Of a DNA stretch of 33,292 nucleotides, positions 1 to 28,256 are shown piece by piece. This DNA is from Candidatus Thorarchaeota archaeon (GTDB lineage Archaea > Asgardarchaeota > Thorarchaeia > Thorarchaeales > Thorarchaeaceae), in the NCBI GenBank assembly GCA_016840855.1, contig JAEORO010000157.1:1-33292 (forward strand). The letters run 5' to 3'. A program made the translations under genes and the position numbers. Position 1 is the first letter of the stretch. Each line of letters begins with the position of its first letter. The notes below the pieces were generated by a model. It made no database searches and was not told the DNA's origin. It saw only the letters and a program-made list of their open reading frames with translations.

Positions 1-70
1 ACGGTCTTCATCAGCTTGGTCTTCAGCAGGTCGCAAAGACATTATGCGTGGAAGAAGCAGGGGGCAATGA
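1..70 (+). CDS. 3' end of upstream gene (partial), probably the biotin carboxylase subunit of an acyl-CoA carboxylase
   Basis: The frame from nt 2 reads RSSSAWSSAGRKDIMRGRSRGQ* (TGA 68-70). An S-x-W-x-x-x-GR tail is typical of biotin carboxylase subunits. The stop lies 1 nt before the ATG of the BCCP gene. Confidence 0.55.
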   Translation, partial: RSSSAWSSAGRKDIMRGRSRGQ

Positions 71-71
71 G

Positions 72-596
72 ATGAGTCCAGAGTACAAGATTACACTGGA
101 TGAGAAGCTGTTTGATGTTGATGTGAAAATGTTGGATGAAGGTGGGTTACTTGTCATCACCGTAGGTGATCAAAGTTTTACAATGAAACCAGCAATTACT
201 GAAGATAACAATTGGGTAGTCAATGACACAGCAAACGATTACGCGGTCAAAATTCTAAAGAAATCCGGAAGAGTCGTCACTCTTGAAATAAATGGTGAAG
301 AACGAATAGTTGAGTGGGAACGAGTAAGAAAACAAGAAGCCACGAAGAGTACATCTAGTGCAACTAAAAGTGGACCCAAAGTTAGTGGGGGCATCTATCC
401 TCCAATGCCTGGTAAAATCACGGAAGTCCGTGTAAAAGCTGGTGACTCAGTGAAGAAAGGACAAACTGTCTGCATTCTTGAAGCCATGAAAATGTTCAAC
501 GAATTGAAAACAAGCACATCCGGGGCTGTGAAAGAAGTCAACTGCGAAGTTGGCTTGATGGTAACACCAGATGACTTGCTTGTACTCATCGAGTGA
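72..596 (+). CDS. Biotin carboxyl carrier protein (biotin/lipoyl-binding subunit of an acyl-CoA carboxylase)
   Basis: C-terminal biotinyl domain PPMPGKI...VKAGDSVKKGQ...LEAMKM with the biotin-accepting Lys, and an S/T/K-rich linker. The track starts at GTG 48, but ATG 72 directly after the upstream stop is more likely. Confidence 0.93.
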   Translation: MSPEYKITLDEKLFDVDVKMLDEGGLLVITVGDQSFTMKPAITEDNNWVVNDTANDYAVKILKKSGRVVTLEINGEERIVEWERVRKQEATKSTSSATKSGPKVSGGIYPPMPGKITEVRVKAGDSVKKGQTVCILEAMKMFNELKTSTSGAVKEVNCEVGLMVTPDDLLVLIE

Positions 597-608
597 GGTC
601 CTAGAATT

Positions 609-1775
609 ATGGAGCCAGTGAATGTCATTGGTGTTGGAATGACTTCATTTGGTATCCTTGATGATTCTCTTGTCCAACTTGCTGAAGAAGCATCATTCAA
701 AGCCATGAGTGACTCCCTGACTTTGGAACAACACTTTGATCATATAGTGGTAGGGTCTCAGAATCCTGATGAGTTTGTCAATAAAGGGCATATTTCAACT
801 CTCTTGGCTGATCGACTTGGTCTTGTTCCTGCTGGCGCAACTCGTGTAGAAACCGGACCATCCTCTGGTTCAAGTGCTTTTGAGGCTGCATTCACAATGA
901 TTGCGTCCGGACATTCTGACCTAGTACTTGTGATTGGTGCCGAGAAGATGTCAGAGGTGGATCGTGGGACTGCATCAAAGATACTCGCTAAGATGATGTC
1001 GTACGAGAATGAAACTCGATATGGCGCTACACCTACTGCATTGGCAGCAATGGTGGCACGTCGTTATATGCACGATTATGGGTTAACTCGTGATGAGTTA
1101 TCACTCATCCCTGTAAAGGCTCATAGGAATGGTGCAAAGAATCCTCTAGCACATTTTCAAAAGGAAATCACAGTAGACACAGTCAACACTGCAAGGGTCG
1201 TTGCAGATCCTCTTACCCTGTTTGACTGTTGTCCGACTAGTGATGGGGCTGCTTCCGTTGTTCTGGCATCAGACGCATTAGTTCATGACCTCAGACTCAC
1301 AGATCAAGCTGTTCGAGTTCTTGGCGTTGGACATGGAACTGACTATCATGCCGTCCAACATAGATTATCACTCACTTCCTTTGGGGCAACAAAAGCTGCT
1401 GCTCAACGAGCATACTCTATGGCAAAACTTGAACCAACGGACATTGATGTGTGTGAGCTGCATGATGCATTTTCAATCCTTGAGCTAGTAAATATGGAAG
1501 ACATAGGGCTTGCTAAACTTGGACAGGCAATTGATTTGGTGAAACAAGGAGCCACTGAGGTTGACGGTCAAATACCAGTCAATACGACAGGCGGACTCAA
1601 GGCCAGAGGGCATCCTACCGGAGGGACTGGTGTAGCACAAATTCATGATATCTATTGTCAGCTTATGCAAAAGGCACCAAAGGGGTTGCAAGTCAGCTCT
1701 CCGGTTATTGGGCTCACTCAAAACATAGGTGGATTTGGAAACAACATGGTAGTAGGAATTTTTTCTGCCCCTTAA
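609..1775 (+). CDS. Thiolase-superfamily protein (archaeal/SCP2-thiolase type) lacking the nucleophilic cysteine
   Basis: Motifs IGVGMT-F, GAEKM, N-P-L-A-HFQK, DCCPTSDGA, ELHDAF, VNTTGGLKARGHP-G-TG, QNIGG. The RVE-x-A-C-x-SG motif reads RVETGPSSG. GAGGT SD-like site at 595-599. Confidence 0.9.
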   Translation: MEPVNVIGVGMTSFGILDDSLVQLAEEASFKAMSDSLTLEQHFDHIVVGSQNPDEFVNKGHISTLLADRLGLVPAGATRVETGPSSGSSAFEAAFTMIASGHSDLVLVIGAEKMSEVDRGTASKILAKMMSYENETRYGATPTALAAMVARRYMHDYGLTRDELSLIPVKAHRNGAKNPLAHFQKEITVDTVNTARVVADPLTLFDCCPTSDGAASVVLASDALVHDLRLTDQAVRVLGVGHGTDYHAVQHRLSLTSFGATKAAAQRAYSMAKLEPTDIDVCELHDAFSILELVNMEDIGLAKLGQAIDLVKQGATEVDGQIPVNTTGGLKARGHPTGGTGVAQIHDIYCQLMQKAPKGLQVSSPVIGLTQNIGGFGNNMVVGIFSAP

Positions 1776-2004
1776 GTTATGCACCATGACATCCTATAAG
1801 CCCTCTTTATGATTCATCCAAGATTGTCTTATTTAATTCTGAGAATGCTACTTTGTGTAAACGCTCGAGTTAAGCTAAGCCTGCTCTAATCTGCACTTGA
1901 TGTAGCACAGCTCAAACCTTGCTAATAGTGTCTAGCAATGACGGAGAATCCAGCTTCATCAACAGCGAAAAGCGTCCATCCATCAACAACATGGAGTCAC
2001 TAGT

Positions 2005-5000
2005 ATGAGGAAGAATGTGCTTGTATTGGCTTTTGTTGTATCACTTTTTGGAATCGGCTTGATAATCCCAAACACCAATTTTGATGCATCACAATCTTTT
2101 TTGAACAAGCCTCAATTATTCACAACATCTGGAATAGGTGATAATAATGAGGACTATGTTGATCAATTATCAAATTTGCACTTGCCATCAGACATTGGGA
2201 CACATGATGTATTTAACGACCTTCTAGCCCATGATACTAATTATGATTCATTGACAGAAGCTAACCAAGGATCAGCTGGGAACGATGTACTAGACACAGT
2301 TGACAGCGATGTTACAGACATTGACTCAAACCCAGATATTGGAACACAGGGTACATTTGTAAATGTCCAAGACTTAGGTGACGCTGATTATATGTCGGTA
2401 CAAGAAGCAGATGTGGGTTTTGCTGGAATCAATGAAAATCTCGATTGTAATGGCTACGATGGAACATACAGTGCATGGACTTTCGCTGGCGCTTCTCCCT
2501 ACTTGGATGCGGTAGACTACACGACGAATTATATCTATACATCTGGGGATAATAATAATGTAGGATATTTCACGTTTCCATCCACATCACTTACATCAGG
2601 ATCCGCTACAGTCACTCTCTATGTTTACTGCATGAGTGGCGATGGAAATGACCTGGCATCGGTCTATTACAATGTTGGTGCTGGAGACATTGATACAGGT
2701 GTTGATGTTTGTGATCAAACTAATTGGCAATATGACACTGTTAATCTAGGAACTCTTACAGCTGCTCAGATTAATGCTCTCAGTATTAGATTTACCTCTG
2801 TTAGGTCTCCACCAGGTAGTGAAATCAGAATCGATTACATCTACATCAATGTCTTTGCTGCTGCTGTTCCTGATTATGAGCTTGAATTTGAGTATCAATT
2901 CACTTCCGTTGATTTTAATGAAGTCAATGAAGAGGTCTGTATTAATATCCAATCAGCTACACAAGGCACTGAAGAACTAGAGGTCTACGAGTGGGATGGT
3001 GTTTCAAGCTGGGCTCTTCTTGGTACACTGAACTCTGATGGTTGGAATAATTTCACAGCATCATATATCACTTCAGTAACCTATTACATTGAGATTCGAG
3101 ATAATGAGCGTACAGATGAAACGACTCAATCAATATGGAATATTGATTCAATTATCCTACATCTATGGACAGTACCAACATTAGATTATGAGTTAGACTT
3201 GGAGGTTGGATGGACTGCAGCTGATTTTGATGAAGCAAATGAGGAGTTATGCATCTTCCCTGTGACTGGAGGTGGGTGGCCATCTGAGGACATTATTGTG
3301 GATGTCTGGAATGGTGCTTGGACAACTGTGTTTGCAGATCTCACTCCTGACCAGTGGAACAATGTGAGTATAAGCAGTTATCTAACAGGTTCAGCATTTG
3401 AGATACGTTTCTTAGGTGGCACTGAAACCGGCGATACCACACAGTCTACTTGGGAGATAGATGCGGTTCTAATACACACCTGGACTCCCAGTTATATTCC
3501 TGCCAACGACCAAGCCCCTACTCTGGACAATCCAAGTGACACTGATAATATGTACGCACAATACCAAGAGTATCAGGTCACCGTATACGTTTCAGATCAG
3601 AATGGATATGCAGATATTGACTACTTAGAGATTGGACTATGGGACAACACACGAGCAACCGAATATTGCAGATTCAGGTATGATGAGGACACGAATACTT
3701 TCACTGAGGAATATGATGCTGGTACATATGTGACTCTTAACACTGGAAGCTCTACTGCAACAGAGAGTGGAAATGATATTGATGCAACATTCTATTTCAC
3801 CATCGATTGGGATTTTCCGGATTCAACTGATTTAGATGCAAATTGCTCTGTAATAGATACACAGACTGAATCTGTGACAACATGGTATGAGGTCAATTGG
3901 GATGTTGAAACCAGACTCGATTATTCAGTATTTCCAAGTATCAATGATGGATCTGGGACTGCAGATAGAGGCGATCTTGACGGGTCATTCTCACTAACTG
4001 GTACAGTCATCTACTACAACTCCGTTGATGTCTATCCATCTTCCACTGCAGTGGATGTTTGGGTATCTTCTACCGAATATGGCTCCACTGTTGGTCCTTG
4101 GAGTGACCTTACACTCACATCAGGTGCCTTTGATGTCACTTGTTATGCTGATGACGCTGTTGGTCAGGATACATACACTATCAAGGTAGTTGAGGAGGGT
4201 GCTGGTTCCGGTGGAATCGACCTTTACTACACAACCAGTTATACTGACACATACATCGCTGACCGTGTACAGGTGCAGCTTTACTCTGTTGTTGATGATC
4301 GAATTGATGTTAGCACAAGTGTGAATGTAGATTTTACCCTCTATTATGATTATGACAACAGTCCAGTCTTAGATGGTACAGTAAGTCTAAACTTGATTTC
4401 TGCTACTGATTTGGGCTCTGGCGTTTGGAGAATAACAGATTCTGAAACAACGGCCACTTCAAACACGTACAACATTGTTAGTTATTCTGGAGGAACACAT
4501 GGAATTTCTGTTGTAGACCAGAATGGTCTTTCTCAACAGGTGATATGGGATGAGATAGTTGTTCAAACCACTGTTGCAGATGATATACGAGTCAATGTTG
4601 GAGATAATGTTGAGATTCGAGTCACACTGTGGTTAGCCTATGACAATACCTTTCTGGGAAGTGGCGACACCGTCACCCTTGCCGGACAAGCAATGACTTG
4701 GGATGACGGTAACTCATGGTTTGATCTAACTGTGTCACAGGCAACAGTTGGCATATGGAGCTACTTTGTGAATTCCAGTTCTGAAACGACTTATGGAATC
4801 TCAGCCTTGGACACAAACAGTCAAAGTGTCGGAGTAGTTTGGGACCAGATTGTTGTCCAGACGACGGTGGCTGATGACACTCGCGTCAATGTCGGAAACA
4901 ATGTTGAGATTCGAGCCACCTTGTGGTTGGCTTATGATGGCACCTTCTTGGGTAGCGGTGATACAGTTACTCTTGCTGGGCTGGCAATGACTTGGGATGC

Positions 5001-8000
5001 CGGCAATTCCTGGTTTGATCTAACCGTATCACAAGCTGCAGTTGGAGTCTGGATTTATTTTGTTAATTCGAGTACAGAAACCAATTTCGGAATAACTGCA
5101 ATTGACACAAACAGCCAAAGCGTTGGAGTAGTCTGGGACCAAATTATAGTCCAGACAACGGTGGCTGATGACACTAGAGTCAATGTTGGTTCAAATGTTG
5201 AGATTCGAGTCACTCTTTGGCTAGCTTATGATGGCACATCTCTTGGGAGTGGCGATACTGTCACCCTTGCCGGACAAGCAATGACTTGGGATGCTGGTAA
5301 CTCATGGTTTGACTTGATTGTTTCCCAGGCGTCAGTGGGTCAATGGACTTACTTTGTTAACTCTAGTTCCGAAACAGCATTTGGAATCACTGCTTTAGAT
5401 ACGAACAGTCAGAATGTAGATGTCATCTGGGACCAGATTGTTGTGCAGACTACTGTTGCTGATGACACACGAGTCAATGTCGGGGACAATGTTGAGATTC
5501 GAGTCACCCTATGGTTGGCTTATGACAATACTTTCCTCGGGAGTGGCGATACCGTCACACTTGCAGGACAAGTGACGACTTGGGATGCTGTAAACTCCTG
5601 GTTTGACCTCAGTGTGTCACAGGCGTCAGTTGGTCTTTGGAATTATTTCGTCAATTCAAGTACTCAGACCGGCTTCGGAATCACAGCTCTCGATACAAAC
5701 AGTCAGAATGTTGACGTCATTTGGGACCAAATCGTTGTTCAAACAACCGTGGCTGATGACACCCGTGTAAATGTTGGTTCAAATGTTGAGATTCGAGTTA
5801 CCTTGTGGCTAGCATACGACAGCACATTTCTTGGGAGTGGCGATACCGTCGCACTTGCAGGACAAGCGATGACTTGGGATGCTGTAAACTCCTGGTTTGA
5901 CCTCACAGTATCGCAAGCATCAGTAGGACTCTGGAATTACTTCGTCAATTCAAGTACTCAGACCGGCTTCGGAATCACAGCTCTCGATACAAACAGTCAG
6001 AATGTTGATGTCATTTGGGACCAAATCGTTGTTCAAACAACCGTGGCTGATGACACCCGTGTAAATGTTGGGGGTAATGTAGAAATCCGAGTCACCCTTT
6101 GGTTAGCTCATGACAGTACTTTTCTCGGGAGTGGTGACACTATCACACTTGCTGGACAAGTGATGACTTGGGACTCTGTGAATTCTTGGTTTGACCTCAT
6201 AGTATCTCAGGCATCAGTAGGTCGTTGGAATTACTTCGTCAATTCAAGTGCGGAAACCACTTTTGGTATTTCATTGTTGGATCCCAACAGTCAGAGTGTT
6301 GGAGTAATCTGGGATCGGATTGTTGTTCAGACGACGGTAGTTGATGATAGTCGTATCAATGTTGGAGCTAATGCTGAGATTCGAGTCACCTTGTGGTTAG
6401 CTTATGATAGTACCTTCTTGGGAAGTGGTGACACTGTGACACTTGCAGGACAAGCCATGACTTGGGATGTTGGTAACTCATGGTTCGACTTATCAGTTTC
6501 ACAACTATCTGTTGGTCTATGGAACTATTTCGTCAACTCTAGCACTGACTCAACTTATGGTATCACACTCATTGATACAAACAGTCAGAGTGTCGGAGTA
6601 GTTTGGGACCAAATTATAGTCCAGACGACGGTGGCCGATGATACTAGGGTCAATGTTGGTTCAAATATTGAGATTCGAGTTACACTCTGGCTAGCGTACG
6701 ACAGCACATTTCTTGGGAGTGGCGATACCGTCGCACTTGCAGGACAAGCGATGACTTGGGATGCTGGTAATACTTGGTTTGACCTCACAGTATCGCAAGC
6801 ATCGGTAGGACTCTGGAATTACTTCGTCAATTCAAGTAGCGAAACAAGCTTCGGAATCACAGCTCTCGATACCAGTAGCCAAAGCGCAGGGGTTGTCTGG
6901 GATCAGATTGCTGTGCAGACCACCGTAGCTGATGATGCACGTGTGAATATAGGAGCCAATGTTGAAATTAGAGTTACTCTTTGGTTAGCTTACGACAATA
7001 CCTTCTTGGGAAGTGGTGATACCGTCACACTAGCAGGACAAGTAATGACTTGGGATTCAACCAATTCTTGGTTTGATCTCACAGTATCTCAGGCGTCAGT
7101 GGGAATTTGGAATTATTTCGCCAATTCCAGCTCAGAAGCAACTTTTGGCATCACTTTGCTAGATACTAATAGTCAGAGTGTCGGAGTAGTCTGGGACCAG
7201 ATTGTTGTACAGACTACCGGGACTGACGATACGCGAGTGGATATAGGAGCTAATGCTGAGATTCGAGTCACCTTGTGGTTAGCTTATGATAATACCTTTC
7301 TGGGAAGTGGTGACACTGTGACACTTGCAGGACAAATAATGACCTGGGATGCTGGCAACTCTTGGTTTGATTTAACAGTGTCACAGATGTCCGTTGGTCT
7401 TTGGAGCTATTATGTCAATACGAGTTCCGATGCAACATACGGAATCACTTTACTTGACACAAATAGTCAAAGCATAGATGTCATCTGGGACCAGATAGTC
7501 GTACAAACAACCACTGCTGATGACACACGAGTCAATGTTGGAAACAATGTAGAGATCCGAGTCACACTCTGGCTCGCCTATGACGGTGCTTTTCTCGGAT
7601 TGGGCGATTCTGTAAATGTTGCAGGACAGGCTATGACTTGGGATGTTGGTAACTCCTGGTTTGACCTCACTGTTAGCCAAGCTTCGGTAGGTTTGTGGAG
7701 TTATTTTGTCAATTCAACCTCTGAAACCACCTTTGGAATTACTGCCTTCAATATTAACAGTCAAGGTGTTGATGTTATCTGGGATCAGATTACTGTGCAA
7801 TCGACTGTAGCAATTGATAATCGTGTAAATGTAGGAAGTAATGTGGAAGTGCGTGTCACGCTCCAGCTTGCTTATGACAACGTATTCTTGGGAAGTGGCG
7901 ACACAATCACCCTTGACGGTCAGACTATGATCTGGGACTCTGTGAACTCTTGGTTCGACCTCGATGTGACACAAGCATCTGTGGGACATTGGAATTACTT

Positions 8001-11000
8001 CGTCAATTCCAGCGTAGAAGCCACATTTGGCATTTCATTGCTGGATACAAACAGTCAAAGTGTTGGAGTGGTTTGGGATCAGATTGTTGTGCAGACAACG
8101 GTTGCTGATGACATTAGAGTCAATGTTGGAGCTAATGCTGAGATTCGAGTCACCCTGTGGTTAGCTTATGATAATACCTTTCTGGGAAGTGGCGATACTG
8201 TCACACTTGCTGGACAAGCAATGACCTGGGATGCAGGTAACTCATGGTTTGATCTCACTGTATCTCAAGCATCAGTAAATCTATGGAATTACTATGTAAA
8301 TTCCAGCTCTGATTCAAATTATGGAATCACTCTATTGGATACAAATAGTCAAAGTGTAGGAGTAATCTGGGATCAGATTGTTGTCCAGTCAACTATCGCA
8401 GACGATACGCGAGTGGATATAGGAGCTAATGCTGAGATTCGAGTCACCTTGTGGTTAGCTTATGATAATACCTTCTTGGGAAGTGGCGATACCGTGACAC
8501 TTGCTGGACAAGCAATGACCTGGGATGCAGGTAACTCATGGTTTGATCTCACGGTATCTCAGGCATCAATAGGACTTTGGAATTATTTCGTTAATTCCAG
8601 CTCAGAAGCCACTTTTGGAATTTCATTGCTAGATACTAATAGTCAGAGTGTCGGAGTAGTCTGGGACCAGATTGTTATACAGACTACAGTTGCTGATGAT
8701 GCAAGAGTCGGTATTGGAGATAATGTTGAGATTCGAGTCACCCTCTGCCTTGCCTACGACAGTACATTTCTTGGGAGTGGCGATACCGTCACACTTGCTG
8801 GACAAGTGATGACCTGGGATGCAGGTAACTCATGGTTTGACCTCTCTGTTTCACAGTTGTCAATTGGTCTTTGGACATACTATGTCAATTCGAGTGCTCA
8901 AACAGGTTTCGGAATCACAACTCTCGATACAAACAGTCAGAGTGTTAATGTCATTTGGGATCAAATTGTAATCACTATAGGTGTGGATGATTCAACACCT
9001 CTCAATGGAATCCAAGTCAATTTTACTTTAGCAATCATGTTTGATTATGATAATATTGCATGCACAACCTACCAAATTGTGATTCAGAGAAACAGCACTT
9101 GGTGGCATTCATTTACTGAAAGTAACAAGTCACAGTTTATAGACACAAACTCTGATACCTCCTATACATACACTGTGATGATTGTTACATCAGAGTCAAC
9201 ATACAATGTACTCTCCTTCTCAACAAACAGTCAACAGGTTGTATGGTCAGCTGCACCCAACTCTGCACCAGTAAACGATTCTGCACCTGATCTAGCAAAT
9301 CCTGATGATACTGACAACTTGTATGCTCGCTATACTTACTATGTCATCACAAGTAGTGTATCTGATATTGATGGATACAACGACATCGAGTACATAGAAT
9401 TGACACTTTATGACAACTCCAGAGCCAGTCCTGTCTGGACAGTTAGATACACGGTATCAGGTAATATCTTCTCAGTTGAGTCAGGAAGTACCTATATCAC
9501 GCTGAGCGCTTCATCCTTTGCAGTTGGAGCTGGTAACAATTTAGATGTCACTTGGTACATCAAAATTGGATGGGATCATTCAGACCTGACAGATGTGGAC
9601 ATGAAGCAATATGTCTATGATGGAATTATTGGAGATGAGGACTTCTATGAGTCAAACTGGGATGTTGAAACCCGTCTAGAAATTACTGGTCTGACAATCG
9701 ACGATGGTTCAGGAACCTCAAATCGCGGTCCTCTCGATGGAGCTTTTACTGTTTCAGGAACACTCATTTTCCTAAACTCTGTTGACAACTATCCCCTTGG
9801 CAACGAAACTGATGTCTGGGTGTCTAGTTCAGAATATGGTACATCTACTGGCCCTTGGAGTGACCTTACACTCACTTCTGGGCAGTTTAGTTTGACTGTC
9901 TATGCTGATGATGAAGTTGGACAAGACACACTAACAATCAAAGCTGTTGTGGAGGGTGGTGGAAGTAGTGGAACTGATCTTCTTAACAGTACAGCACAAT
10001 CAACCTACATAGCTGATCGGATTGCTGTTCAATCATACGCAGCTCTCGACCCTCGAATAAACATCAATGATGCAGCTACAATTGATGTGGAACTCCTTTA
10101 CGAGTACGATTCTAGTCCAGTCATGAACGGATCAGTTACAATCAACGGAATTGCAGCAACACATCAAGGAAGTGGAACTTGGAGATTTTCTGACACAAAG
10201 TCTTCTGTACAATCGTTCACCTATAATGTCGTTGCTTATTCTGGTGGAATTCACGGACTTAACCAAGTCAACCAGAATGCCATGACTCAGGATGTCATCT
10301 GGGATCAAATAGTTGTTCAAACAACTGTTGCTAATGACACAAGGGTCGATGTAGGAGCCAATGTTGAGATTCGAGTCACACTATGGCTTGCTTATGATAG
10401 CTCATTCCTAGGCTCAGGCGACACAGTGACTCTAGCTGGATCTGCAATGACTTGGGATTTTGGTGAAGGACGATTCGAATTGATAGTTAGCCAAGCATCA
10501 GTTGGGTCTTGGACATACTTTGTGAACTCAAGCTCTGAGTCCACTTATGGCATAACATCACTGAATCTCTCTGGTAGTAATGTAAGTGTCATCTGGGACA
10601 GAATACAAGTCCAGTCATACTCAATGAGTGATGGTCGTGTTAATGTTGGCGAAAGTGTTGACATTGATGTGAATCTCTACTATGACTATGATGACTCTCC
10701 TGTTACTGATGGTACAATTACAGTGAATGGAGCAATAGCAACTCATCAAGGCACAGGTCTCTGGAGGTTCTCTGACTCTGAAGTTGTTGTCGTTATGAAC
10801 ACTTACAATCTCGTTGTATGTTCTGGCAACATATACGGTCTCACTGCTGTTGATCAAAATAGTCAATCTCTGAATGTGATTTGGGACCAGTTAGTTATCG
10901 TAATTGGCGTTGATGATCCATCTTCACTGAATGGTCATCAAGCGAACTTCACTCTATCAGTGACATTCGACTATGATGACTCAGTATGTACTACATACCA

Positions 11001-14000
11001 GATTGTGGTAGACAGGAATGCAACATGGTGGCACTCATTCACCACTGTCAATTTATCATCATTTGTTGATACTAGCACTAATACAACCTACCTCTACAAT
11101 GTCAGTCTTGTGTCAAGTGAATCTACCTACGGTATAACCGCTTTTAGCACAAACACTCTACAGGTCACCTGGTCTCTCGCACCTAATGAGGTTCCAGTGA
11201 ATGATTTTGGCCCAGTTCTTACGAACGCTGATGATACTGACTATCTATACGCTCGATATCGATACTATGTGATTACGACATCTGTGAGTGATCTTAATGG
11301 ATATGCGGATATTAGCTATGTTGAGTTAACACTCTACTCTGATGACCAGCTTACGCAATACTGGACTGTGCGATATACAGTTGGAACGGGCATCTTCTCA
11401 GTGGAGTCTGGTGGCACGAACATAGCCATCGGTTCAGTGTCTAACGCTGTTGGTGTTGGAGATACGCTGACCATTATCTGGTACATCAAGATCAACTGGG
11501 ACCATCCTGATGTCGTAGATTCAGATGTCAATCAGTATGTCACTGATGGGACTGCAAGTAATTCAGACTTCTATGAGAGTAACTGGAATGTCGAAACTCG
11601 TCTTGATTACTCTGTGTTTCCCGCATTGTCTGATGACCGTGGAGATATTAATACTGGAAACCTATTTGGGACTGGAGCGGTAACATACTATGGCTCTAGT
11701 ATAAGTCCTCGCTCCAATGAAACTGATGTCTGGATTGTTCATGATCTTGCGGGGACTTGGAGTGGAAACCTCCTAGCTGGTAGTTTCAACATCTCAAGCA
11801 TAAGCTCAGCAGCAACAGTCCGAATGAACACCTATACATTCAAGATTGTTGCCGAGGGTGTTGGCTCAGGTGGCACAGACCTCTACTATACAACAAGCCT
11901 TACAGACACTTTCGTCACTGATAGGATCGAGATTTATGAGGCTGGTGTAGTTGACGGTAGAATCAACATCAACTCTGACTGTGAGGTCTGGTGGAGAGCA
12001 AGGTATGAGTATAGCAGCACCGAGATACAGAGTGGGTTGGCAATTGAGCTCGTTGGATCAAAGATTCTTGTCTGGGATGCAGGTAATCTCTACTGGAGAT
12101 GGATAGAATCTTCAATCATTCCTGATTTGGTAGAATTTGAAGTTGCATCTGCAAGCGAGTCGACATATGGGCTTACTGCATGGTTCAATACAACTCCTGT
12201 ACAGCAAGTCATATGGGACTCTCTTGTCATAACAATAACTGACCCTATTGACCAGAGGATAAATGTTGGCGCAAACGCATCAGGTATTGTTGTGAGTGCA
12301 GTCTACGCCTTTGATGGTACTCCCTATGATGGGAGCTTCATTTTGAACAATACTAACTACCAATACGCAACCCCACAGATTCAGGGTTATACCGTTCTAA
12401 GTTGCTCTGGCGATACATATGACATTACAGCGATTGGAATCAATGATGAAACATATTGTATATGGGATAGAGTCTTTGTTGTTTCATTAGATGCTGATGA
12501 ACTCTATCACGACCCCAACGATGATGTGATTATAACAGTTGAGCTTCAGTATGAGTTTGATAGTTCCTCAGTTGAGGACGGTATGTTTTTGATTGCTGGT
12601 CATCCACTCACTCATATAGGCTTAGGCATCTGGGAGGCGCAAGTCACAATAGCTGACTATCAAACGATAAACTTTGACAGCTTCACAATGTGTAATGCTA
12701 CAGTTCATGGCATTAGTGCATACAACATGAACAGCAATGGAGTTGCAGTATATTGGGACCGTCTCGAATTCTATTCGGTATCAGTGGATGATGGTAGAAT
12801 CAATGTCGGATCTTCATCCAATATTCAATGGAGTGTACGATTAGAGAATGCTGGTGTTTCAATCACATCTGGTCTCACAGCAGAGATGACTGGTGGTATA
12901 ACTCTCACTCCATCAGCTGGTTTCTATACTGCTACCGTCACCGAGGGTGTGATTGGAAGTGTATCCTATGGTATTTTGACAGCGACAATAGGGGAGATAG
13001 ATCAATTCACACAAAGTGCATCTGATGCTGTTGTCATCTGGGATAGAGTATCAGTCGCATCCATTCAAGCATATCCTCTCTCCTTGGACGCTGCTACAGC
13101 AACAGAAATTCGAGTCACACTGGTCTATGAGTTCGACTCTACTGAAGTCACAGACGGTGAGGTCTATCTAAATGACAACGGTGCATCTGTAGCAATGTCC
13201 TACAATTCTGCTGGTGGTTACTGGAGTGCATCCATCACGAAAACTACTGCTGGAAACTACACCTTCATTGTTGGAACAGTTCTGGGCAATACTCACGGCA
13301 TCTCTTCTCTTAGCACAGGTGGTTTAAGTGTCGAGGTCGAATGGGTAGCTGTCCCAGGATTCACAATTGACCCCATGACACTGATGCTAATCGGTGGTGT
13401 TGGCATTGGAGTCATTGGTGCTGCAATTGTAGCGTCGCGTCGTGGAAAACGCGGAGATGCTGCCGCGGTTAGCGATGTCGAATTGGCTGATTTCGGTGTT
13501 CCGGAACCTGCTGAACCTACGATAGCAGCTGAGCCAGAAATTGTCGAATCCGAAGCTGAAGCAGTCTCTGAAGAAATAAAGGCCGAAGAAACTGAACTAA
13601 TTGAGCCAGAGGTGTCTGAAGTGCCTGAAATAGAAGCTGAATCAGTCGAGGAAGTGGTTGAGCTTGAAGAGGTTGAACTTCCTCCTGTCGATGAAGAGAT
13701 TGGAGCAGATATAGCCATAATTGAACCTGCAGCTGAAGTAGTTGAAGAAACTCCAGAAGCGGTTGAAATTGAACTTCCTGAAGCCAAAGATTTGGAAATT
13801 GAAGCTGAACCTTCTATTCCTGAAGAGCCTCTTACAGAAGTAGCACCAGAAATTGAAGAGTCAATAGACGAAGTAGAAGTCAAACCTGAGTTTCCGGAAT
13901 ATGAAAAAATCCCGGAGGAGTTCATCGAACCAGCACCTGAGGTAGATTTGACAAAACTGACAAAGAAAGAGCTCCTTGATTTGATTCCTGCAGATATTAG

Positions 14001-14088
14001 GGAATCCACATCACCCAACGAACTCAAACGACTAACAAAACAAGAACTGATCAGTCTCGTAGAATCTTTCAGAGATGTCGAGGAATAG
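2005..14088 (+). CDS. Giant (4027 aa) repetitive cell-surface glycoprotein/adhesin-like protein with signal peptide, C-terminal TM anchor and long acidic cytoplasmic tail
   Basis: Uninterrupted 12-kb ORF. N-terminal MRK plus hydrophobic signal, D/T/S/V/W-rich beta-type repeats with many N-x-S/T sequons, TM MTLMLIGGVGIGVIGAAIVAS followed by RRGKRG, then an E/P-rich tail. Confidence 0.9.
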   Translation: MRKNVLVLAFVVSLFGIGLIIPNTNFDASQSFLNKPQLFTTSGIGDNNEDYVDQLSNLHLPSDIGTHDVFNDLLAHDTNYDSLTEANQGSAGNDVLDTVDSDVTDIDSNPDIGTQGTFVNVQDLGDADYMSVQEADVGFAGINENLDCNGYDGTYSAWTFAGASPYLDAVDYTTNYIYTSGDNNNVGYFTFPSTSLTSGSATVTLYVYCMSGDGNDLASVYYNVGAGDIDTGVDVCDQTNWQYDTVNLGTLTAAQINALSIRFTSVRSPPGSEIRIDYIYINVFAAAVPDYELEFEYQFTSVDFNEVNEEVCINIQSATQGTEELEVYEWDGVSSWALLGTLNSDGWNNFTASYITSVTYYIEIRDNERTDETTQSIWNIDSIILHLWTVPTLDYELDLEVGWTAADFDEANEELCIFPVTGGGWPSEDIIVDVWNGAWTTVFADLTPDQWNNVSISSYLTGSAFEIRFLGGTETGDTTQSTWEIDAVLIHTWTPSYIPANDQAPTLDNPSDTDNMYAQYQEYQVTVYVSDQNGYADIDYLEIGLWDNTRATEYCRFRYDEDTNTFTEEYDAGTYVTLNTGSSTATESGNDIDATFYFTIDWDFPDSTDLDANCSVIDTQTESVTTWYEVNWDVETRLDYSVFPSINDGSGTADRGDLDGSFSLTGTVIYYNSVDVYPSSTAVDVWVSSTEYGSTVGPWSDLTLTSGAFDVTCYADDAVGQDTYTIKVVEEGAGSGGIDLYYTTSYTDTYIADRVQVQLYSVVDDRIDVSTSVNVDFTLYYDYDNSPVLDGTVSLNLISATDLGSGVWRITDSETTATSNTYNIVSYSGGTHGISVVDQNGLSQQVIWDEIVVQTTVADDIRVNVGDNVEIRVTLWLAYDNTFLGSGDTVTLAGQAMTWDDGNSWFDLTVSQATVGIWSYFVNSSSETTYGISALDTNSQSVGVVWDQIVVQTTVADDTRVNVGNNVEIRATLWLAYDGTFLGSGDTVTLAGLAMTWDAGNSWFDLTVSQAAVGVWIYFVNSSTETNFGITAIDTNSQSVGVVWDQIIVQTTVADDTRVNVGSNVEIRVTLWLAYDGTSLGSGDTVTLAGQAMTWDAGNSWFDLIVSQASVGQWTYFVNSSSETAFGITALDTNSQNVDVIWDQIVVQTTVADDTRVNVGDNVEIRVTLWLAYDNTFLGSGDTVTLAGQVTTWDAVNSWFDLSVSQASVGLWNYFVNSSTQTGFGITALDTNSQNVDVIWDQIVVQTTVADDTRVNVGSNVEIRVTLWLAYDSTFLGSGDTVALAGQAMTWDAVNSWFDLTVSQASVGLWNYFVNSSTQTGFGITALDTNSQNVDVIWDQIVVQTTVADDTRVNVGGNVEIRVTLWLAHDSTFLGSGDTITLAGQVMTWDSVNSWFDLIVSQASVGRWNYFVNSSAETTFGISLLDPNSQSVGVIWDRIVVQTTVVDDSRINVGANAEIRVTLWLAYDSTFLGSGDTVTLAGQAMTWDVGNSWFDLSVSQLSVGLWNYFVNSSTDSTYGITLIDTNSQSVGVVWDQIIVQTTVADDTRVNVGSNIEIRVTLWLAYDSTFLGSGDTVALAGQAMTWDAGNTWFDLTVSQASVGLWNYFVNSSSETSFGITALDTSSQSAGVVWDQIAVQTTVADDARVNIGANVEIRVTLWLAYDNTFLGSGDTVTLAGQVMTWDSTNSWFDLTVSQASVGIWNYFANSSSEATFGITLLDTNSQSVGVVWDQIVVQTTGTDDTRVDIGANAEIRVTLWLAYDNTFLGSGDTVTLAGQIMTWDAGNSWFDLTVSQMSVGLWSYYVNTSSDATYGITLLDTNSQSIDVIWDQIVVQTTTADDTRVNVGNNVEIRVTLWLAYDGAFLGLGDSVNVAGQAMTWDVGNSWFDLTVSQASVGLWSYFVNSTSETTFGITAFNINSQGVDVIWDQITVQSTVAIDNRVNVGSNVEVRVTLQLAYDNVFLGSGDTITLDGQTMIWDSVNSWFDLDVTQASVGHWNYFVNSSVEATFGISLLDTNSQSVGVVWDQIVVQTTVADDIRVNVGANAEIRVTLWLAYDNTFLGSGDTVTLAGQAMTWDAGNSWFDLTVSQASVNLWNYYVNSSSDSNYGITLLDTNSQSVGVIWDQIVVQSTIADDTRVDIGANAEIRVTLWLAYDNTFLGSGDTVTLAGQAMTWDAGNSWFDLTVSQASIGLWNYFVNSSSEATFGISLLDTNSQSVGVVWDQIVIQTTVADDARVGIGDNVEIRVTLCLAYDSTFLGSGDTVTLAGQVMTWDAGNSWFDLSVSQLSIGLWTYYVNSSAQTGFGITTLDTNSQSVNVIWDQIVITIGVDDSTPLNGIQVNFTLAIMFDYDNIACTTYQIVIQRNSTWWHSFTESNKSQFIDTNSDTSYTYTVMIVTSESTYNVLSFSTNSQQVVWSAAPNSAPVNDSAPDLANPDDTDNLYARYTYYVITSSVSDIDGYNDIEYIELTLYDNSRASPVWTVRYTVSGNIFSVESGSTYITLSASSFAVGAGNNLDVTWYIKIGWDHSDLTDVDMKQYVYDGIIGDEDFYESNWDVETRLEITGLTIDDGSGTSNRGPLDGAFTVSGTLIFLNSVDNYPLGNETDVWVSSSEYGTSTGPWSDLTLTSGQFSLTVYADDEVGQDTLTIKAVVEGGGSSGTDLLNSTAQSTYIADRIAVQSYAALDPRININDAATIDVELLYEYDSSPVMNGSVTINGIAATHQGSGTWRFSDTKSSVQSFTYNVVAYSGGIHGLNQVNQNAMTQDVIWDQIVVQTTVANDTRVDVGANVEIRVTLWLAYDSSFLGSGDTVTLAGSAMTWDFGEGRFELIVSQASVGSWTYFVNSSSESTYGITSLNLSGSNVSVIWDRIQVQSYSMSDGRVNVGESVDIDVNLYYDYDDSPVTDGTITVNGAIATHQGTGLWRFSDSEVVVVMNTYNLVVCSGNIYGLTAVDQNSQSLNVIWDQLVIVIGVDDPSSLNGHQANFTLSVTFDYDDSVCTTYQIVVDRNATWWHSFTTVNLSSFVDTSTNTTYLYNVSLVSSESTYGITAFSTNTLQVTWSLAPNEVPVNDFGPVLTNADDTDYLYARYRYYVITTSVSDLNGYADISYVELTLYSDDQLTQYWTVRYTVGTGIFSVESGGTNIAIGSVSNAVGVGDTLTIIWYIKINWDHPDVVDSDVNQYVTDGTASNSDFYESNWNVETRLDYSVFPALSDDRGDINTGNLFGTGAVTYYGSSISPRSNETDVWIVHDLAGTWSGNLLAGSFNISSISSAATVRMNTYTFKIVAEGVGSGGTDLYYTTSLTDTFVTDRIEIYEAGVVDGRININSDCEVWWRARYEYSSTEIQSGLAIELVGSKILVWDAGNLYWRWIESSIIPDLVEFEVASASESTYGLTAWFNTTPVQQVIWDSLVITITDPIDQRINVGANASGIVVSAVYAFDGTPYDGSFILNNTNYQYATPQIQGYTVLSCSGDTYDITAIGINDETYCIWDRVFVVSLDADELYHDPNDDVIITVELQYEFDSSSVEDGMFLIAGHPLTHIGLGIWEAQVTIADYQTINFDSFTMCNATVHGISAYNMNSNGVAVYWDRLEFYSVSVDDGRINVGSSSNIQWSVRLENAGVSITSGLTAEMTGGITLTPSAGFYTATVTEGVIGSVSYGILTATIGEIDQFTQSASDAVVIWDRVSVASIQAYPLSLDAATATEIRVTLVYEFDSTEVTDGEVYLNDNGASVAMSYNSAGGYWSASITKTTAGNYTFIVGTVLGNTHGISSLSTGGLSVEVEWVAVPGFTIDPMTLMLIGGVGIGVIGAAIVASRRGKRGDAAAVSDVELADFGVPEPAEPTIAAEPEIVESEAEAVSEEIKAEETELIEPEVSEVPEIEAESVEEVVELEEVELPPVDEEIGADIAIIEPAAEVVEETPEAVEIELPEAKDLEIEAEPSIPEEPLTEVAPEIEESIDEVEVKPEFPEYEKIPEEFIEPAPEVDLTKLTKKELLDLIPADIRESTSPNELKRLTKQELISLVESFRDVEE
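4546..8955 (+). repeat. 15 tandem intragenic repeats of exactly 294 nt (98 aa), probable Ig-like beta-sandwich modules
   Basis: The TGG of W-D-[QER]-I-x-x-Q recurs at 4546, 4840, 5134, 5428, 5722, 6016, 6310, 6604, 6898, 7192, 7486, 7780, 8074, 8368 and 8662; the next, different module starts at 8956. Consensus WDQIVVQTTVADDTRVNVG.NVEIRVTLWLAYD.TFLGSGDTVTLAGQAMTWD.GNSWFDL.VSQASVGLW.YFVNSS....GIT.LDTNSQ.V.V. Confidence 0.95.
10300..10593 (+). repeat. Isolated 16th copy of the 98-aa repeat
   Basis: WDQIVVQTTVANDTRVDVGANVEIRVTLWLAYDSSFLGSGDTVTLAG..., 294 nt to the next WD at 10594. Confidence 0.9.
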
Positions 14089-14171: not shown

Positions 14172-14510
14172 ATGTCTGGTCAGACAATATCAAGTTCAAA
14201 ATGCAGTATGTGCAACAGAGTGATTGTTCCCCCTAGAGACACTTGTCCCTTCTGTGGAAAGAGTGCTGGAACAATGAAACTTTTGGAGTTGCCGCCCAAG
14301 GGAAAAATTCAGAGTTATACGACTCTCCAGATGCCTCCAGAAGGTTTCCAAAGTCCGCTTTTAATGGCCCTGGTTGAACTTGACCATGGTGCATTAATTC
14401 TGTGTCTCGCAAGTGAGTCGAATGAACAGTCTATGAACATTGGCGATGATGTTGAGATTGCGCTCGACTCAGAAAAGAGATTCTGTTTTCGCCTTATCAG
14501 TCCAGACTGA
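14172..14510 (+). CDS. DUF35-family Zn-ribbon/OB-fold protein (thiolase/aldolase partner)
   Basis: CSMC...PPR..CPFC zinc ribbon, then G-KI-SYT...PPEGF-SP...ALVELDHG OB-fold and IGDDVE. Confidence 0.9.
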   Translation: MSGQTISSSKCSMCNRVIVPPRDTCPFCGKSAGTMKLLELPPKGKIQSYTTLQMPPEGFQSPLLMALVELDHGALILCLASESNEQSMNIGDDVEIALDSEKRFCFRLISPD

Positions 14511-15775: not shown

Positions 15776-17563
15776 TTAGTTCTTTATAATGGCGATAATT
15801 CGATACATGTCACCCACTATTTGAATCGTGGCAGTGAAATTGTCACTGACATCGAGGTCGTTGAGCAGTGTGTACCAATCTGCAAGATTCATCCAGTCAC
15901 GTGCTCCCTCAATGAATGGGTACGTGACATTGTCAGTTCGTAACACAATATGAGTATCTCCATTATCAACATATGATGTCTTATTGACGACATTTGCTGT
16001 GAGGTTGAATGTCCCTGTAGGTTCAGGTTCTATAATACCTCCAAGAAGTTCCACATACGATGAACGGACTGAATATACAAGATCCTCTCCAGAAAGTGTT
16101 CCTCCAAGAGGTTTCCACACAAATCGGTCGATGTTTGAAGCATCTACCATCCCCAAAGCGTGAAGACGCATGTTTGTTGCGGTATATTCCTCGAGGTCTT
16201 CATCATAGTAGTAATCAGCCCAATAAATTGGACAATACCAAGTCCACTTTGTGAGGGTCGAATTAATCGCAACTGGATAAAGCAGGGGCATTGCTCCATA
16301 GTACATTCCACTAGCTGGGGCACCTATATCTGCAACTACATTTGCAGCAGCCGCGTCACCACTGACATAACCCTCGTTGCTAAGGTCATGATAATAGACT
16401 GCGTCCTTTGTTGCTCTGAACACACCAGCTAGTGTTCTAGTCGCTGTCACAGGATGCACTGCGATGAATGCTTCAATTCTATCAGTATCAGGGTTGATTA
16501 TATAGCGTGTGTCTTCATGTATTTCCAATCTGTCATTGGATGGAGGAATGAACCATAGAAGTCCACCTGCAAAGAGGTCGAATCCATCTCCGCGTCTATA
16601 TCCTCCCCATCTTGATATCTGGCGTTCAAGCCACTCTTCTCCATATGCTTGGGTGATCCAATCAGGAGTTTCTTCGATAGTATCATAGCTAAAAACAGAA
16701 CCGTTCTCTGCGTACACGATGGGGCCAATTGGTCTTTCAACAAAGTCGAATCCAAGTGGTGTTCTTGTCTGAACATAGACTAGCGCACCAGTGGGGTCCC
16801 AAGTCGGATACGCATACTGGTAACTCGCGGTCATATCATTGAGGTAGTTAGCAAACCGAATATCCTTATCCCAGAACAATCCCTCTCCAACAGGTATTGT
16901 TGTTTCTGAAATCAGATGCGGAGTCACTGATTGCGGATCATTCGCATCAACAACAATAAACCCTTTCACATAGTTCTCTGCTAGTACATTAGTTGATACT
17001 ATCGTACACACCCATACAAGCGTGCCATTTGGATTTGAGGTTATATGGGCAGCAGCAACATAGACATTAGATCCAAATGGCGAAATATGTTGAAGAGCTA
17101 CATATTTTGCATATTCCTCAGTAACCAATCTTACCTTGTCATCATCAATTGTATGATTGAAGAGAGGTTCATCAGTCATAATTATCATGCTATCAAAAAA
17201 CTCAGCATTTGTTACATCTGAAGTCCAACTGATGACCCCTGAGAAGATTGGCATAACAATCAGTATAATCAATCCAATACATGTAAGGGGCACTCTAATG
17301 CCTTCGAGTACTTGCTCAATATGTCTCCCACGAAATCCACTGGAAACAACTAGCAAAGCCGAGAAACTCATTATCAGGGCAATAATTGCCCAGGGAAGAG
17401 TGGAAACCAATAACAAGCATATGATGACCCATGCAACAGTCCCCCAAATAAGTCGAAATGGAAGCCATTTAATCAATTTACCAGGCCTCAGCATCTCATG
17501 ACTAAATGGGATTGGTATTGCATGAACTATTAGACTTATCAAAAGAAACACTAGTACATTCAT
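15776..17563 (-). CDS. Hypothetical membrane protein (about 4 N-terminal TMs plus a large, probably extracytoplasmic domain)
   Basis: 595-aa ORF with hydrophobic first ~110 aa and a Y/W/P-rich soluble region. GAGGT SD-like site upstream of the ATG. Confidence 0.8.
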   Translation of the reverse strand: MNVLVFLLISLIVHAIPIPFSHEMLRPGKLIKWLPFRLIWGTVAWVIICLLLVSTLPWAIIALIMSFSALLVVSSGFRGRHIEQVLEGIRVPLTCIGLIILIVMPIFSGVISWTSDVTNAEFFDSMIIMTDEPLFNHTIDDDKVRLVTEEYAKYVALQHISPFGSNVYVAAAHITSNPNGTLVWVCTIVSTNVLAENYVKGFIVVDANDPQSVTPHLISETTIPVGEGLFWDKDIRFANYLNDMTASYQYAYPTWDPTGALVYVQTRTPLGFDFVERPIGPIVYAENGSVFSYDTIEETPDWITQAYGEEWLERQISRWGGYRRGDGFDLFAGGLLWFIPPSNDRLEIHEDTRYIINPDTDRIEAFIAVHPVTATRTLAGVFRATKDAVYYHDLSNEGYVSGDAAAANVVADIGAPASGMYYGAMPLLYPVAINSTLTKWTWYCPIYWADYYYDEDLEEYTATNMRLHALGMVDASNIDRFVWKPLGGTLSGEDLVYSVRSSYVELLGGIIEPEPTGTFNLTANVVNKTSYVDNGDTHIVLRTDNVTYPFIEGARDWMNLADWYTLLNDLDVSDNFTATIQIVGDMYRIIAIIKN

Positions 17564-28059: not shown

Positions 28060-28256
28060 TTGTACCAGGCTCATATTGCTTTGCATGCGGCTTGTGAACC
28101 CTAACATAAGAGCACATGAACCTATCGAATACTGAACCGGAAAGCTTCAAAAGGTCCAGAAAGGAAAATGAAGATGTCGGACTTGAGGTAGGAACATTCG
28201 AGTTTGATTTATCTATGAAAGAAGTACAGCATCTATACCCTTGAGAGGTCGTAGCT

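Follow-up and report, generated by a model that had tools for sequence, protein, structure and literature searches.

A giant, modular surface protein of a Thorarchaeia archaeon with a nested head and exchangeable tip, predicted to be a fibrillar adhesin

The contig JAEORO010000157.1 of a Candidatus Thorarchaeota archaeon (assembly GCA_016840855.1; 33,292 nucleotides, referred to below as the window) carries a single uninterrupted open reading frame (ORF) at positions 2005-14088 of the forward strand, encoding a protein of 4027 amino acids (aa), here called the giant. The product, of about 439 kDa, is strongly acidic (472 Asp and Glu against 91 Lys and Arg residues in the ectodomain), with abundant Val, Thr, Ser, Asp and Trp and scarce Lys. 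Based on sequence comparison, structure models and analogy with known systems, we infer with moderate confidence that the giant is a long-reach fibrillar adhesin with exchangeable specificity. In the models, an N-terminal head of three nested jelly-rolls, the innermost of which is the candidate ligand-binding tip, is followed by a stalk of immunoglobulin (Ig)-like modules, and the protein ends with a predicted membrane helix and cytoplasmic tail. The 4027-aa frame and the order of its modules, both proposed in an earlier note made from the sequence, were confirmed by the ORF and by profile annotation. The features are listed in Table 1.

A head of nested split jelly-rolls

In the head, a 150-aa segment is preceded by a 46-aa piece, present twice, and followed by a 105-aa piece, also present twice. 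A model of aa 44-640, made with 40 sequences, gave a predicted local distance difference test score (pLDDT) of 90.7 and a predicted template-modelling score (pTM) of 0.53, and was aligned against 48,161 chains. The alignment with 7t7z, a carbohydrate-binding module (CBM) of family CBM8, spans model positions 1..449 (Z 10.5, root-mean-square deviation (rmsd) 2.9, 124 residues aligned), and that with the CBM86 structure 6sgf spans positions 51..346 (Z 10.7, rmsd 2.8, 122 residues aligned). Ranges like the latter were given by 2okx, 1gwk and 8iwf (49-51..346-348 for the four rows). The tip, at about model positions 98..242 in most rows, was matched by CBMs, EphA3, the MAM domain of meprin and the gingipain K1 adhesin domain (Z 9-11, rmsd about 3). 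Since one domain of 125 residues cannot extend over 450 residues without being interrupted by an insert, the model indicates three nested CBM-like jelly-rolls, with the tip inserted into a middle-domain loop and the middle domain in turn into a loop of the outer domain.

Each split domain contributes an opening and a closing half, which can be written as a pair of brackets. Among the 141 related proteins whose N-terminus is hydrophobic, 113 had balanced halves, that is, equal in number and in proper order, as against a mean of 37 and a maximum of 56 in 10,000 count shuffles, a comparison not to be read as a probability. For the set of all proteins, 137 of 194 were balanced (shuffles, mean 49, maximum 71); the duplicate P0002 was excluded from the test. 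The nested N-terminal head claimed in the earlier note is thus borne out by both the alignment ranges and the bracket balance. The observed patterns include (), (()) and (()()), with nesting up to six levels deep, and branched heads were found at loci L081 and L082 and in 39 listed proteins. The frame L081:1832-7921 (genome G370) has three tips on one outer domain, L082 (G355) has two tips, P0069 reaches six levels, and the 10,138-aa frame L080 (G314) includes eight closing parts, for which only some opening halves were detected.

The exchangeable tip

A total of 226 bracketed inserts were grouped into 29 sequence families. For 27 tips, the first D module of the stalk (D1) is 75-93% identical to that of the giant; 26 of these tips are only 19-42% identical to ours, and one is 65% identical. 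Compared with the giant, the two opening halves and the closing part of the outer domain are conserved in G350 (proportion of nonsynonymous differences, pN, 0.09-0.13) but the tip is not (0.47), while in G351 and G345 the whole inner bracket differs (0.37-0.46) and the outer closing part is kept (0.10-0.12). In the three closest heads (L051-L053), our tip is retained with a pN of 0.12-0.13, similar to that of the flanks, indicating that the tip changes by block replacement rather than by fast drift.

The slot accommodates recognised domains in some relatives. A Pfam scan was performed for 18 proteins, chosen for precomputed matches or pilin-like starts. F5/8 type C domains (P0215 and P0228) and Laminin_G_3 domains (P0279, P0299 and P0316) were detected inside the slot above the Pfam cut-off, and a Pilin_N start above the cut-off was found on three head carriers (P0223, P0260 and P0286). 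In P0228, Pilin_N scored just below the cut-off. The giant's own tip gave no Pfam or PHROG match, and thus no sequence match to a CBM family. Three relatives of this tip were found by sequence, none of them annotated, and its family is kept across several species at an identity of at least 76-77%. Taken with the model, the tip is a candidate ligand-binding domain in an exchangeable slot.

The Ig-like stalk

The profile annotation reads head - D E B A x15 C D E B A B C D E F G X3 X4 X5 - transmembrane helix - tail. The tally of 32 stalk modules and three head domains, 35 in all, agrees with the earlier estimate of about 35 modules, and their beta-sandwich nature with the models and homology. 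Full-length members of the family have 21-50 stalk modules, and the order F-G-X3-X4-X5 is identical in most of them. The motif positions given in the earlier note were right within a few codons (D at 3505, 9274 and 11200; NW.VETRL at 3895, 9655 and 11581; C at 8956 and 10882), while the wording of the motifs was loose, the copies varying between NDQAP, NDSAP and NDFGP or between DRG, NRG and DRG.

The modules were compared all against all with phmmer, using 25 segments. Within-type matches gave expectation values (E) of 1e-30 to 1e-55 for D-D, 3e-43 for C-C and 1e-41 to 1e-51 for A-A. Matches across types were also detected, including A1-B3 (9e-14), A1-F (3e-9), A1-G (2e-6) and C1-A16 (3e-6). 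In contrast, D and E gave no E better than 0.004 against segments of the other stalk types. In sequence, then, A, B, F, G, X3-X5 and, more weakly, C form one Trp-Asp-delimited family, from which D and E are separate. The module order of the earlier note stands, but the modules that it had kept apart as A, B, C and "degenerate" fall into a single homologous family. The 204 proteins compared contain 282 D modules; E comes next in 258 of these, and 210 have C or the head before them, indicating a grammar of the form head-D-E-(units)n-[C-D-E-(units)n]k, in which C-D-E appears as a recurring cassette.

At the DNA level, the fifteen A units share 64-86% identity, some patches being exactly alike, and show a pN of 0.12 versus a proportion of synonymous differences (pS) of 0.69. 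These values argue for old duplicates under purifying selection and against an assembly loop. For the C-D-E-B block compared with G351, the nonsynonymous and synonymous distances were 0.081 (dN) and 0.711 (dS), a dN/dS of about 0.11. Runs of 22-24 identical codons were found between units 10/14, 5/8 and 4/5, as against column shuffles in which the longest identical run averaged 11.9 and reached 24 in one of 2000, which suggests patchy gene conversion among the units. The nearest unit was in the same protein for 11 of the 16 A units of the giant and for 3-5 of 9-15 in three close relatives, pointing to partial homogenisation of the array.

For comparison of the arrays, 18 relatives were picked to span the array types. 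In ten orthologues with D1 75-92% identical to ours, the first array is of the B or G type and only 31-44% identical to that of the giant, the units of these replaced arrays being 56-87% identical among themselves. The retention of D1 next to such different arrays indicates that the array has apparently been rebuilt repeatedly from a different subtype. Between close relatives, the tip and the stalk arrays are swapped independently of each other, with selection being purifying.

An AlphaFold2 model of A15-C-D-E-B-A16 (50 sequences) was all beta, with a mean pLDDT of 93.3 and a pTM of 0.59. Multi-domain matches to this model included fibronectin III, FdeC, invasin, intimin, SiiE, InvD and titin (Z 8.4-11.6, rmsd 5-17), and single-domain matches gave Z 8-9.5 and rmsd 2.5-3.2. 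Module D matched antibody V domains (Z 8-9.5, rmsd about 3), and module C matched macroglobulin and C2-type domains (Z 8.7, rmsd 2.5). The matches are middling, with less than 19% identity; as modelled, the fold class appears clear (Ig-like) and the family new. The long stalk of the earlier note thus finds support, its Ig-like modules being borne out by the stalk model and by homology. Foldseek lists for the whole models contained generic multi-Ig matches with low TM-scores, and an ESM Atlas search with A-A gave Big_3_5/MG-type clusters (0.89-0.90, low recognition), taken as a lead only.

Membrane anchor and cytoplasmic tail

Hydrophobic stretches above the threshold were found only at aa 2-26 and aa 3786-3812, in agreement with the predicted single-pass topology, that is, one C-terminal helix besides the hydrophobic N-terminus. 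In orthologues, the stretch between the signal-like segment and the head (aa 27-44; 2083-2136) is kept as a spacer some 20 residues long, with small residues (S-G or S-A) at its end, and is possibly an extended signal or a second processing site. The orthologues have similar glycine-rich membrane helices. Topology was assigned by the positive-inside rule, according to which RRGKR after the helix would place the C-terminus inside the cell. The acidic linker that follows varies in length and sequence among the relatives and is probably disordered.

The C-terminal motif of 47 aa was found in 15 of the 28 genomes of the genus, usually on the giant and on a second, unrelated giant of about 2400-2500 aa. 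In the giant's own genome, it was also detected in an unrelated multi-pass membrane protein on contig C52 (E 4e-8) and in a soluble protein on contig C99 (E 1e-7); the best E of the reversed-sequence control was 0.078. The former (C52:2-2446, forward strand) is a fragment of a multi-pass membrane giant ending in the motif. The latter (C99:10732-11907, reverse strand) has three weak copies of the motif and N-terminal repeats called HEAT-like from a reading of its sequence, not from a database match. No Pfam family matched the tail motif, and a likeness to Rho_N/HeH motifs was not confirmed by Pfam. ESM Atlas hits of the tail, XylA2_C (0.83), SAP (0.81) and Rho_N (0.79), are leads only. Paralogues with the same ectodomain carry other tails, either purely acidic or short and basic, indicating that the motif is not required for the family. 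It is a plausible docking site. Six other giants of the genome (on contigs C53, C248, C176, C2, C195 and C181) carry a different conserved helical end motif of 60 aa after an acidic linker, which is present in four copies in C195.

Proposed function and alternatives

As an adhesin, the giant would work as follows. In the nested head as modelled, the chain passes out to the tip and back. The split domain serves as a socket, which in relatives is nested one to six deep or branched, with its innermost slot filled by differing domains. Ig domains add a rise of about 3.5-4.5 nm each, and the 32 stalk domains, if straight, would hold the head about 110-140 nm from the membrane. The tip would bind a ligand outside the cell, the likeliest being a glycan carried by a sediment particle or by a second cell, as suggested by its fold, by the lectin-type and pilin-borne relatives and by the precedent of RTX adhesins (passages of PMC12077191). 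A swap of the tip would change specificity, a change in unit number would alter reach, and the conserved tail motif may tether or cluster the protein from inside. The adhesin role named in the earlier note is supported by comparison (tip swapping and lectin-type slot domains), but its choice of a syntrophic partner as the ligand has no specific support. A syntrophic-partner ligand is possible; the tip fold and the relatives appear to point as much to glycans on particles or cells.

Several observations weigh against this reading. The fold of the tip matches protein-binding domains (Eph and MAM) as well as CBMs, at less than 18% identity, and a jelly-roll fold alone does not show sugar binding. 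The nesting was read from first and last aligned ranges and not from coordinates, the outer domain being represented by one row. Among the 141 proteins of the bracket test, 28 were unbalanced, 12 of them with a lone closing part, and the proteins are kin on which the profiles were also trained, so that the shuffles overstate significance. The modelled stalk is limited to six modules and D1, while F, G, X3-X5 and the tail were assigned by sequence only. With a pTM of 0.59 for the stalk and 0.53 for the head, straightness and reach are not established. N-glycosylation sequons are not enriched (41 versus a shuffle mean of 51), no rapid point diversification of the tip was seen among the closest heads, and no image of a Thorarchaeia cell was found in the literature.

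Three other functions were weighed. The giant could be part of a passive, acidic and glycosylated envelope brush that shields a wall-less cell from viruses, predators and minerals, its head binding nothing useful and varying only to escape viruses that use it as a receptor. The very acidic ectodomain, the abundance of such genes (20 ORFs of at least 1500 aa, 4.4% of the genome), the interchangeability of the stalk subtype within a length of 21-50 modules, and the turnover of the tip, which fits receptor escape too, would all agree with shielding. This explanation is nevertheless unlikely: the slot holds recognised lectin-type domains, mounted on pilins in relatives, branched heads with several tips suit avidity or multiple ligands and not shielding, and the sequons noted above are not enriched. 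Still less probable is a homophilic adhesin for kin recognition, in which like tips would pair between two cells or two protrusions, with self groups set by the swapped tips. MAM-type domains, which the tip resembles in fold, mediate homophilic adhesion in animals, and the tip differs sharply between close species while its flanks are conserved. Densities linking protrusions have been seen in a Lokiarchaeon (passages of PMC9834061). Against this stand the many lectin-type slot fillers of the relatives and the distribution of one tip family over several species at the identity given above, which is coarse for kin discrimination. A two-copy complex prediction for the middle-plus-tip head gave a score of 0.00, which is evidence neither way.

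The remaining alternative, a transmembrane receptor in which binding to or pulling on the tip would be passed on to a cytoplasmic scaffold by way of the glycine-rich helix and the tail motif, is improbable to a similar degree. The conservation of the 47-aa motif behind a variable linker, its presence on a second giant family and on a soluble HEAT-like protein, and the conserved Gly-x-x-x-Gly spacing in the helix would agree with such a receptor. On the other side, the tails of paralogues that share the ectodomain grammar are very unlike, so that the family can do without the motif, no enzymatic domain is present, and a long disordered linker would be a poor mechanical relay. An adhesin with an exchangeable tip remains the preferred reading. 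A wider version of it, which we regard as doubtful, is that Asgard archaea and Bathyarchaeia share a combinatorial adhesion kit, in which a self-nesting jelly-roll socket with a linear or branched balanced-bracket grammar presents any of dozens of exchangeable tips on pili or on stalks of separately tuned reach, and that the Thorarchaeia version is wired by its tail motif to an internal scaffold as a variable partner-recognition receptor. If true, it would be a receptor of the kind invoked for the cell contacts preceding eukaryogenesis.

The gene, its site and its reality

The AT-rich block upstream of the gene was kept in all five aligned upstream regions, in which the remaining spacer has diverged, and may act as the promoter. 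Its distance of about 170 nt from the ATG (region 1812-2004) implies a long leader. A GGAGT motif directly precedes the start codon in all five regions. The hairpin past the stop codon is retained with altered sequence in the orthologues L164-L168, as judged by eye; it has no T-run, unlike a classic terminator, and is followed by a conserved AT-rich block and then by ChsH2. It is a probable 3' end signal. Among 30 ChsH2 loci, the giant is located directly upstream in 12 and another gene in 16, while in G353 (L171) the thiolase gene directly adjoins ChsH2, leaving an empty site, and in G364 (L169) a remnant ORF of 79 aa retains the tail motif only. The upstream block and hairpin of its own, together with the present, empty and remnant states at the thiolase-ChsH2 site, indicate that the giant gene apparently behaves as a self-contained unit gained or lost at one site.

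Two observations could be taken for an assembly artefact or a decaying gene. P0002, a second assembly of the giant, has 14 instead of 15 A units (unit 5 missing) and four substitutions, and no listed contig from the compared runs spans the whole gene. Such an explanation is hardly credible, however, as the frame is intact, selection is purifying, 69 giant relatives exist and the DNA was recovered in four studies. With 41 and 58 of its 294 bases unlike those of the adjacent units, unit 5 is not a false duplication. The contigs of four runs from four studies, drawn from 20 listed runs, of which the best-matching may be the source sample, covered 24-29 of 30 bins of the gene with no insertion or deletion listed. 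The concern over an artefact raised in the earlier note is answered by this coverage together with the DNA divergence of the units and the number of relatives. One substitution of P0002, at position 7222, was seen also in two of the compared runs, and its missing unit may be an allele or an assembly collapse across an identical tract of 56 or 68 nt. Three runs carry an in-register A unit, of which the 28 central letters are absent from the studied genome; a strain or a close relative may be its source.

In Periscope proteins, the stalk length varies within species by loss or gain of repeats. Here, no 294-nt skip joint was found among the joints listed in the compared contigs; two other skip joints, whose short side measures 20-21 letters, were regarded as matches to foreign sequence. 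A metagenome scan for array alleles gave nine loci, none with the same allele, and no RNA dataset was present among the listed runs carrying the DNA of the gene.

Two other genes of the window, both on the reverse strand, encode membrane proteins. One (15776-17563) specifies a 595-aa protein with N-terminal helices and a large outer domain, without a Pfam match. The other (26092-28107) specifies a second surface protein, a subtilase (Peptidase_S8, E 2e-36) that is anchored in the membrane and has additional domains towards its C-terminus.

Table 1. Features of the giant gene and its flanks in the window
Feature	Position	Strand	Basis
Thiolase gene, upstream edge of insertion site	609..1775	+	Pfam Thiolase
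AT-rich conserved upstream block, promoter-like, about 170 nt before ATG	1812..1838	+	Upstream alignment
Giant surface protein gene	2005..14088	+	ORF, composition
Signal peptide-like N-terminus, MRK and hydrophobic core	2005..2082	+	Hydropathy; similar N-termini in full-length relatives
Opening half of outer split jelly-roll (aa 44-90)	2134..2274	+	Profile match aa 44-87; CBM8 7t7z
Opening half of middle split jelly-roll (aa 91-136)	2275..2412	+	Profile match; CBM86 6sgf
Innermost tip (aa 137-287), continuous jelly-roll, galactose-binding-domain-like (CBM, MAM, Eph ligand-binding)	2413..2865	+	Structural alignments
Closing part of middle split domain (H1)	2866..3177	+	Segment comparison, alignments, profiles
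Closing part of outer split domain (H2)	3178..3492	+	H1-H2 E 1e-20, alignments, profiles
D1-E1-B1, D a large V-set-like Ig domain	3490..4545	+	Profiles; antibody V domains align to model 454..595
Fifteen 98-aa A units, Ig-like, Trp-Asp delimited	4546..8955	+	Motif spacing, DNA comparison, model, profiles
C1-D2-E2-B2, first C-D-E cassette	8956..10299	+	Model pLDDT 93, fold matches, profiles
A16 and B3	10300..10881	+	Segment comparison, profiles
C2-D3-E3, second C-D-E cassette	10882..11919	+	Motifs, segment comparison, profiles
F, G, X3, X4, X5, membrane-proximal modules, diverged A/B members	11917..13344	+	Homology to A/B
Transmembrane helix, Gly-x-x-x-Gly spacing, then RRGKR	13372..13437	+	Hydropathy
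Acidic proline-rich cytoplasmic linker, 168 aa (60 Asp+Glu, 20 Pro)	13441..13944	+	Composition
Conserved 47-aa C-terminal helical motif	13945..14085	+	Within-genome and genus comparison
Hairpin directly past stop codon	14101..14122	+	z -3.7; by-eye likeness in orthologues
ChsH2/DUF35 OB-fold gene, downstream edge of insertion site	14172..14510	+	Pfam OB_ChsH2_C

Relatives and distribution

Of the 69 giant relatives, 17 are taxon-named, including 10 from Thorarchaeota and 7 with other Asgard labels. The 52 loci in named genomes were from Thorarchaeota (35), Promethearchaeota (8), Hermodarchaeota (2), uncultured archaeon (5) and Ignavibacteria (2). The last two, L098 and L112, titled 'uncultured Ignavibacteria bacterium', carry the family at 43-52% identity; transfer to bacteria was not accepted on these titles, mis-titling or mis-binning being likelier. 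The C-D-E-B block was detected in 50 of 85 genomes of the own family and, marginally, in one of 314 other Asgard genomes, many of the genomes being incomplete. Of 400 Asgard genomes, 77 carried the closing part, including 32 that are not of the own family (27 at E <1e-20), and it was also detected in 470 database proteins; among the best 120 of these, 8 of 15 taxon-named proteins were from Bathyarchaeota. Judging from these matches, the stalk cassette appears confined to Thorarchaeia among the Asgards, while the split domain occurs also elsewhere in the Asgards and in Bathyarchaeia. Frames of 20,619 aa (G207:C13) and 14,729 aa (G071:C14) from other Asgard families contain the split domain, in four copies in the first. 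A paralogue in the giant's own genome, on contig C149, matches P0020 (5163 aa) in module order and C-terminus. Pfam matches on relatives to DUF7738, MerB, F-93 and EF-hand were disregarded as sums of weak repeats with zero passing stretches.

Significance

Asgard cells have unidentified surface structures and depend on partners, yet almost no surface proteins have been named. The family offers concrete candidates, including a tip of 150 residues that could be expressed, a predicted length visible by tomography, and a tail motif. The head also illustrates clearly how natural proteins can use recursive, branching insertion of domains for plug-in display, which bears on protein evolution and design. 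The surprise is limited in that the overall plan, with head, Ig stalk, anchor and split domains, is known from bacteria.

Comparison with known systems

No Pfam match at cut-off was obtained for the whole giant (best E 0.012) or for 17 segments (best 0.016), nor any NCBIfam match. A PHROGs search gave one family of unknown function by summed score, with no single stretch, and two profiles gave no match among PDB sequences (best E 0.17). The earlier statement that the family is not a recognised one agrees with the Pfam, NCBIfam and PDB-sequence results. No description of this family was found in a literature search confined largely to the main text of freely available papers; giant Thorarchaeota genes are mentioned without this anatomy in the main-text passages of PMC8813620 and PMC11573180. 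The design itself is more familiar than the earlier note implied, head-stalk-anchor adhesins in which split domains carry ligand-binding domains outwards having already been described in bacteria (passages of PMC12077191).

The closest of these are the RTX adhesins, whose split domains push out ligand-binding domains, among them a CBM that binds fucose; the giant follows this principle with a different fold. As described in passages of PMC12077191, AhLap of Aeromonas hydrophila combines a giant chain of Ig-like extenders with ligand domains, including a CBM, that bud from split domains, and second-level nesting is seen once in RTX adhesins too, as an insert in a vWFA domain within a beta-roll. 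The same passages describe an Ig-like split domain, used once per ligand domain, type I secretion, an N-terminal anchor and C-terminal tips. In contrast, the giant has a jelly-roll nested in its own copies, an N-terminal head, a signal peptide-like N-terminus, a C-terminal membrane helix and a cytoplasmic tail of 215 aa. No sequence similarity to RTX adhesins was found in the Pfam, NCBIfam and PDB-sequence searches.

The stalks of invasin, intimin, FdeC, InvD and SiiE (1cwv, 1f02, 6tpl, 4e9l, 5ldy and 2yn3) are likewise tandem Ig-like, matching E-B-A with Z 8.4-10.8 at 8-18% identity. Unlike invasin and intimin, the giant is without an outer-membrane barrel, its N-terminal region being modelled as jelly-rolls, and has the large V-set-like D placed periodically within the C-D-E cassette. 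Big_1 was not matched in the whole giant or in the 17 segments. The nesting of the head recalls Si3 of the cyanobacterial RNA polymerase beta' subunit, a domain inserted into its own copies over six levels with bifurcating nodes (passages of PMC13114784 and PMC10895346). Recursive, branching self-insertion up to six deep is common to Si3 and the related heads; as presented in those passages, however, Si3 is part of a cytoplasmic enzyme subunit, has a sandwich-barrel hybrid fold unrelated to the jelly-roll and is without an exchangeable ligand-binding tip.

Asgard proteins of 3000-6000 aa are also known from the aloposons Otus and Ephialtes and as other Asgard giants (passages of PMC8813620 and PMC11573180). 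The aloposon giants are encoded by tandem genes with a tRNA integration site downstream and a ParA-like gene upstream (passages of PMC8813620), while our giant is a single gene between thiolase and ChsH2 without a tandem partner, and no tRNA was found within the window; the two are set apart by gene context. The pilin-like proteins P0223, P0260 and P0286 and the carriers from Bathyarchaeia have the same bracketed head (closing part 33-60% identical), several with lectin-type tips, but mount it on Pilin_N or short anchors instead of a stalk of 32 domains. Pilin_N itself had no match in the giant. Archaeal S-layer families gave no sequence match in the Pfam, NCBIfam, segment and PDB-sequence searches, and the S-layer structures 7ptp, 4aq1 and 8c8l appeared only as generic multi-Ig Foldseek rows with TM-scores of 0.13-0.19. 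The empty site of G353, a 93% complete genome with no match to the stalk cassette, argues indirectly against an S-layer role. In a cultured Lokiarchaeon, structures protrude from the surface of a cell with one membrane, and an ordered S-layer is absent (passages of PMC9834061; also PMC12993045).

The giant shows architectural features of a fibrillar adhesin, namely a predicted export signal and an anchor at opposite ends, a stalk of Ig-like repeats and a ligand-binding fold at the distal end. It therefore resembles a bacterial fibrillar adhesin and, on the features tested, lies outside the RTX, invasin/intimin, S-layer and aloposon families. The plan of head, Ig stalk and anchor and the use of split domains are known from bacteria, and recursive nesting is known from RNA polymerase. 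New are the unnamed domain set, the self-nesting, branching socket for exchangeable tips and the independently rebuilt stalk.

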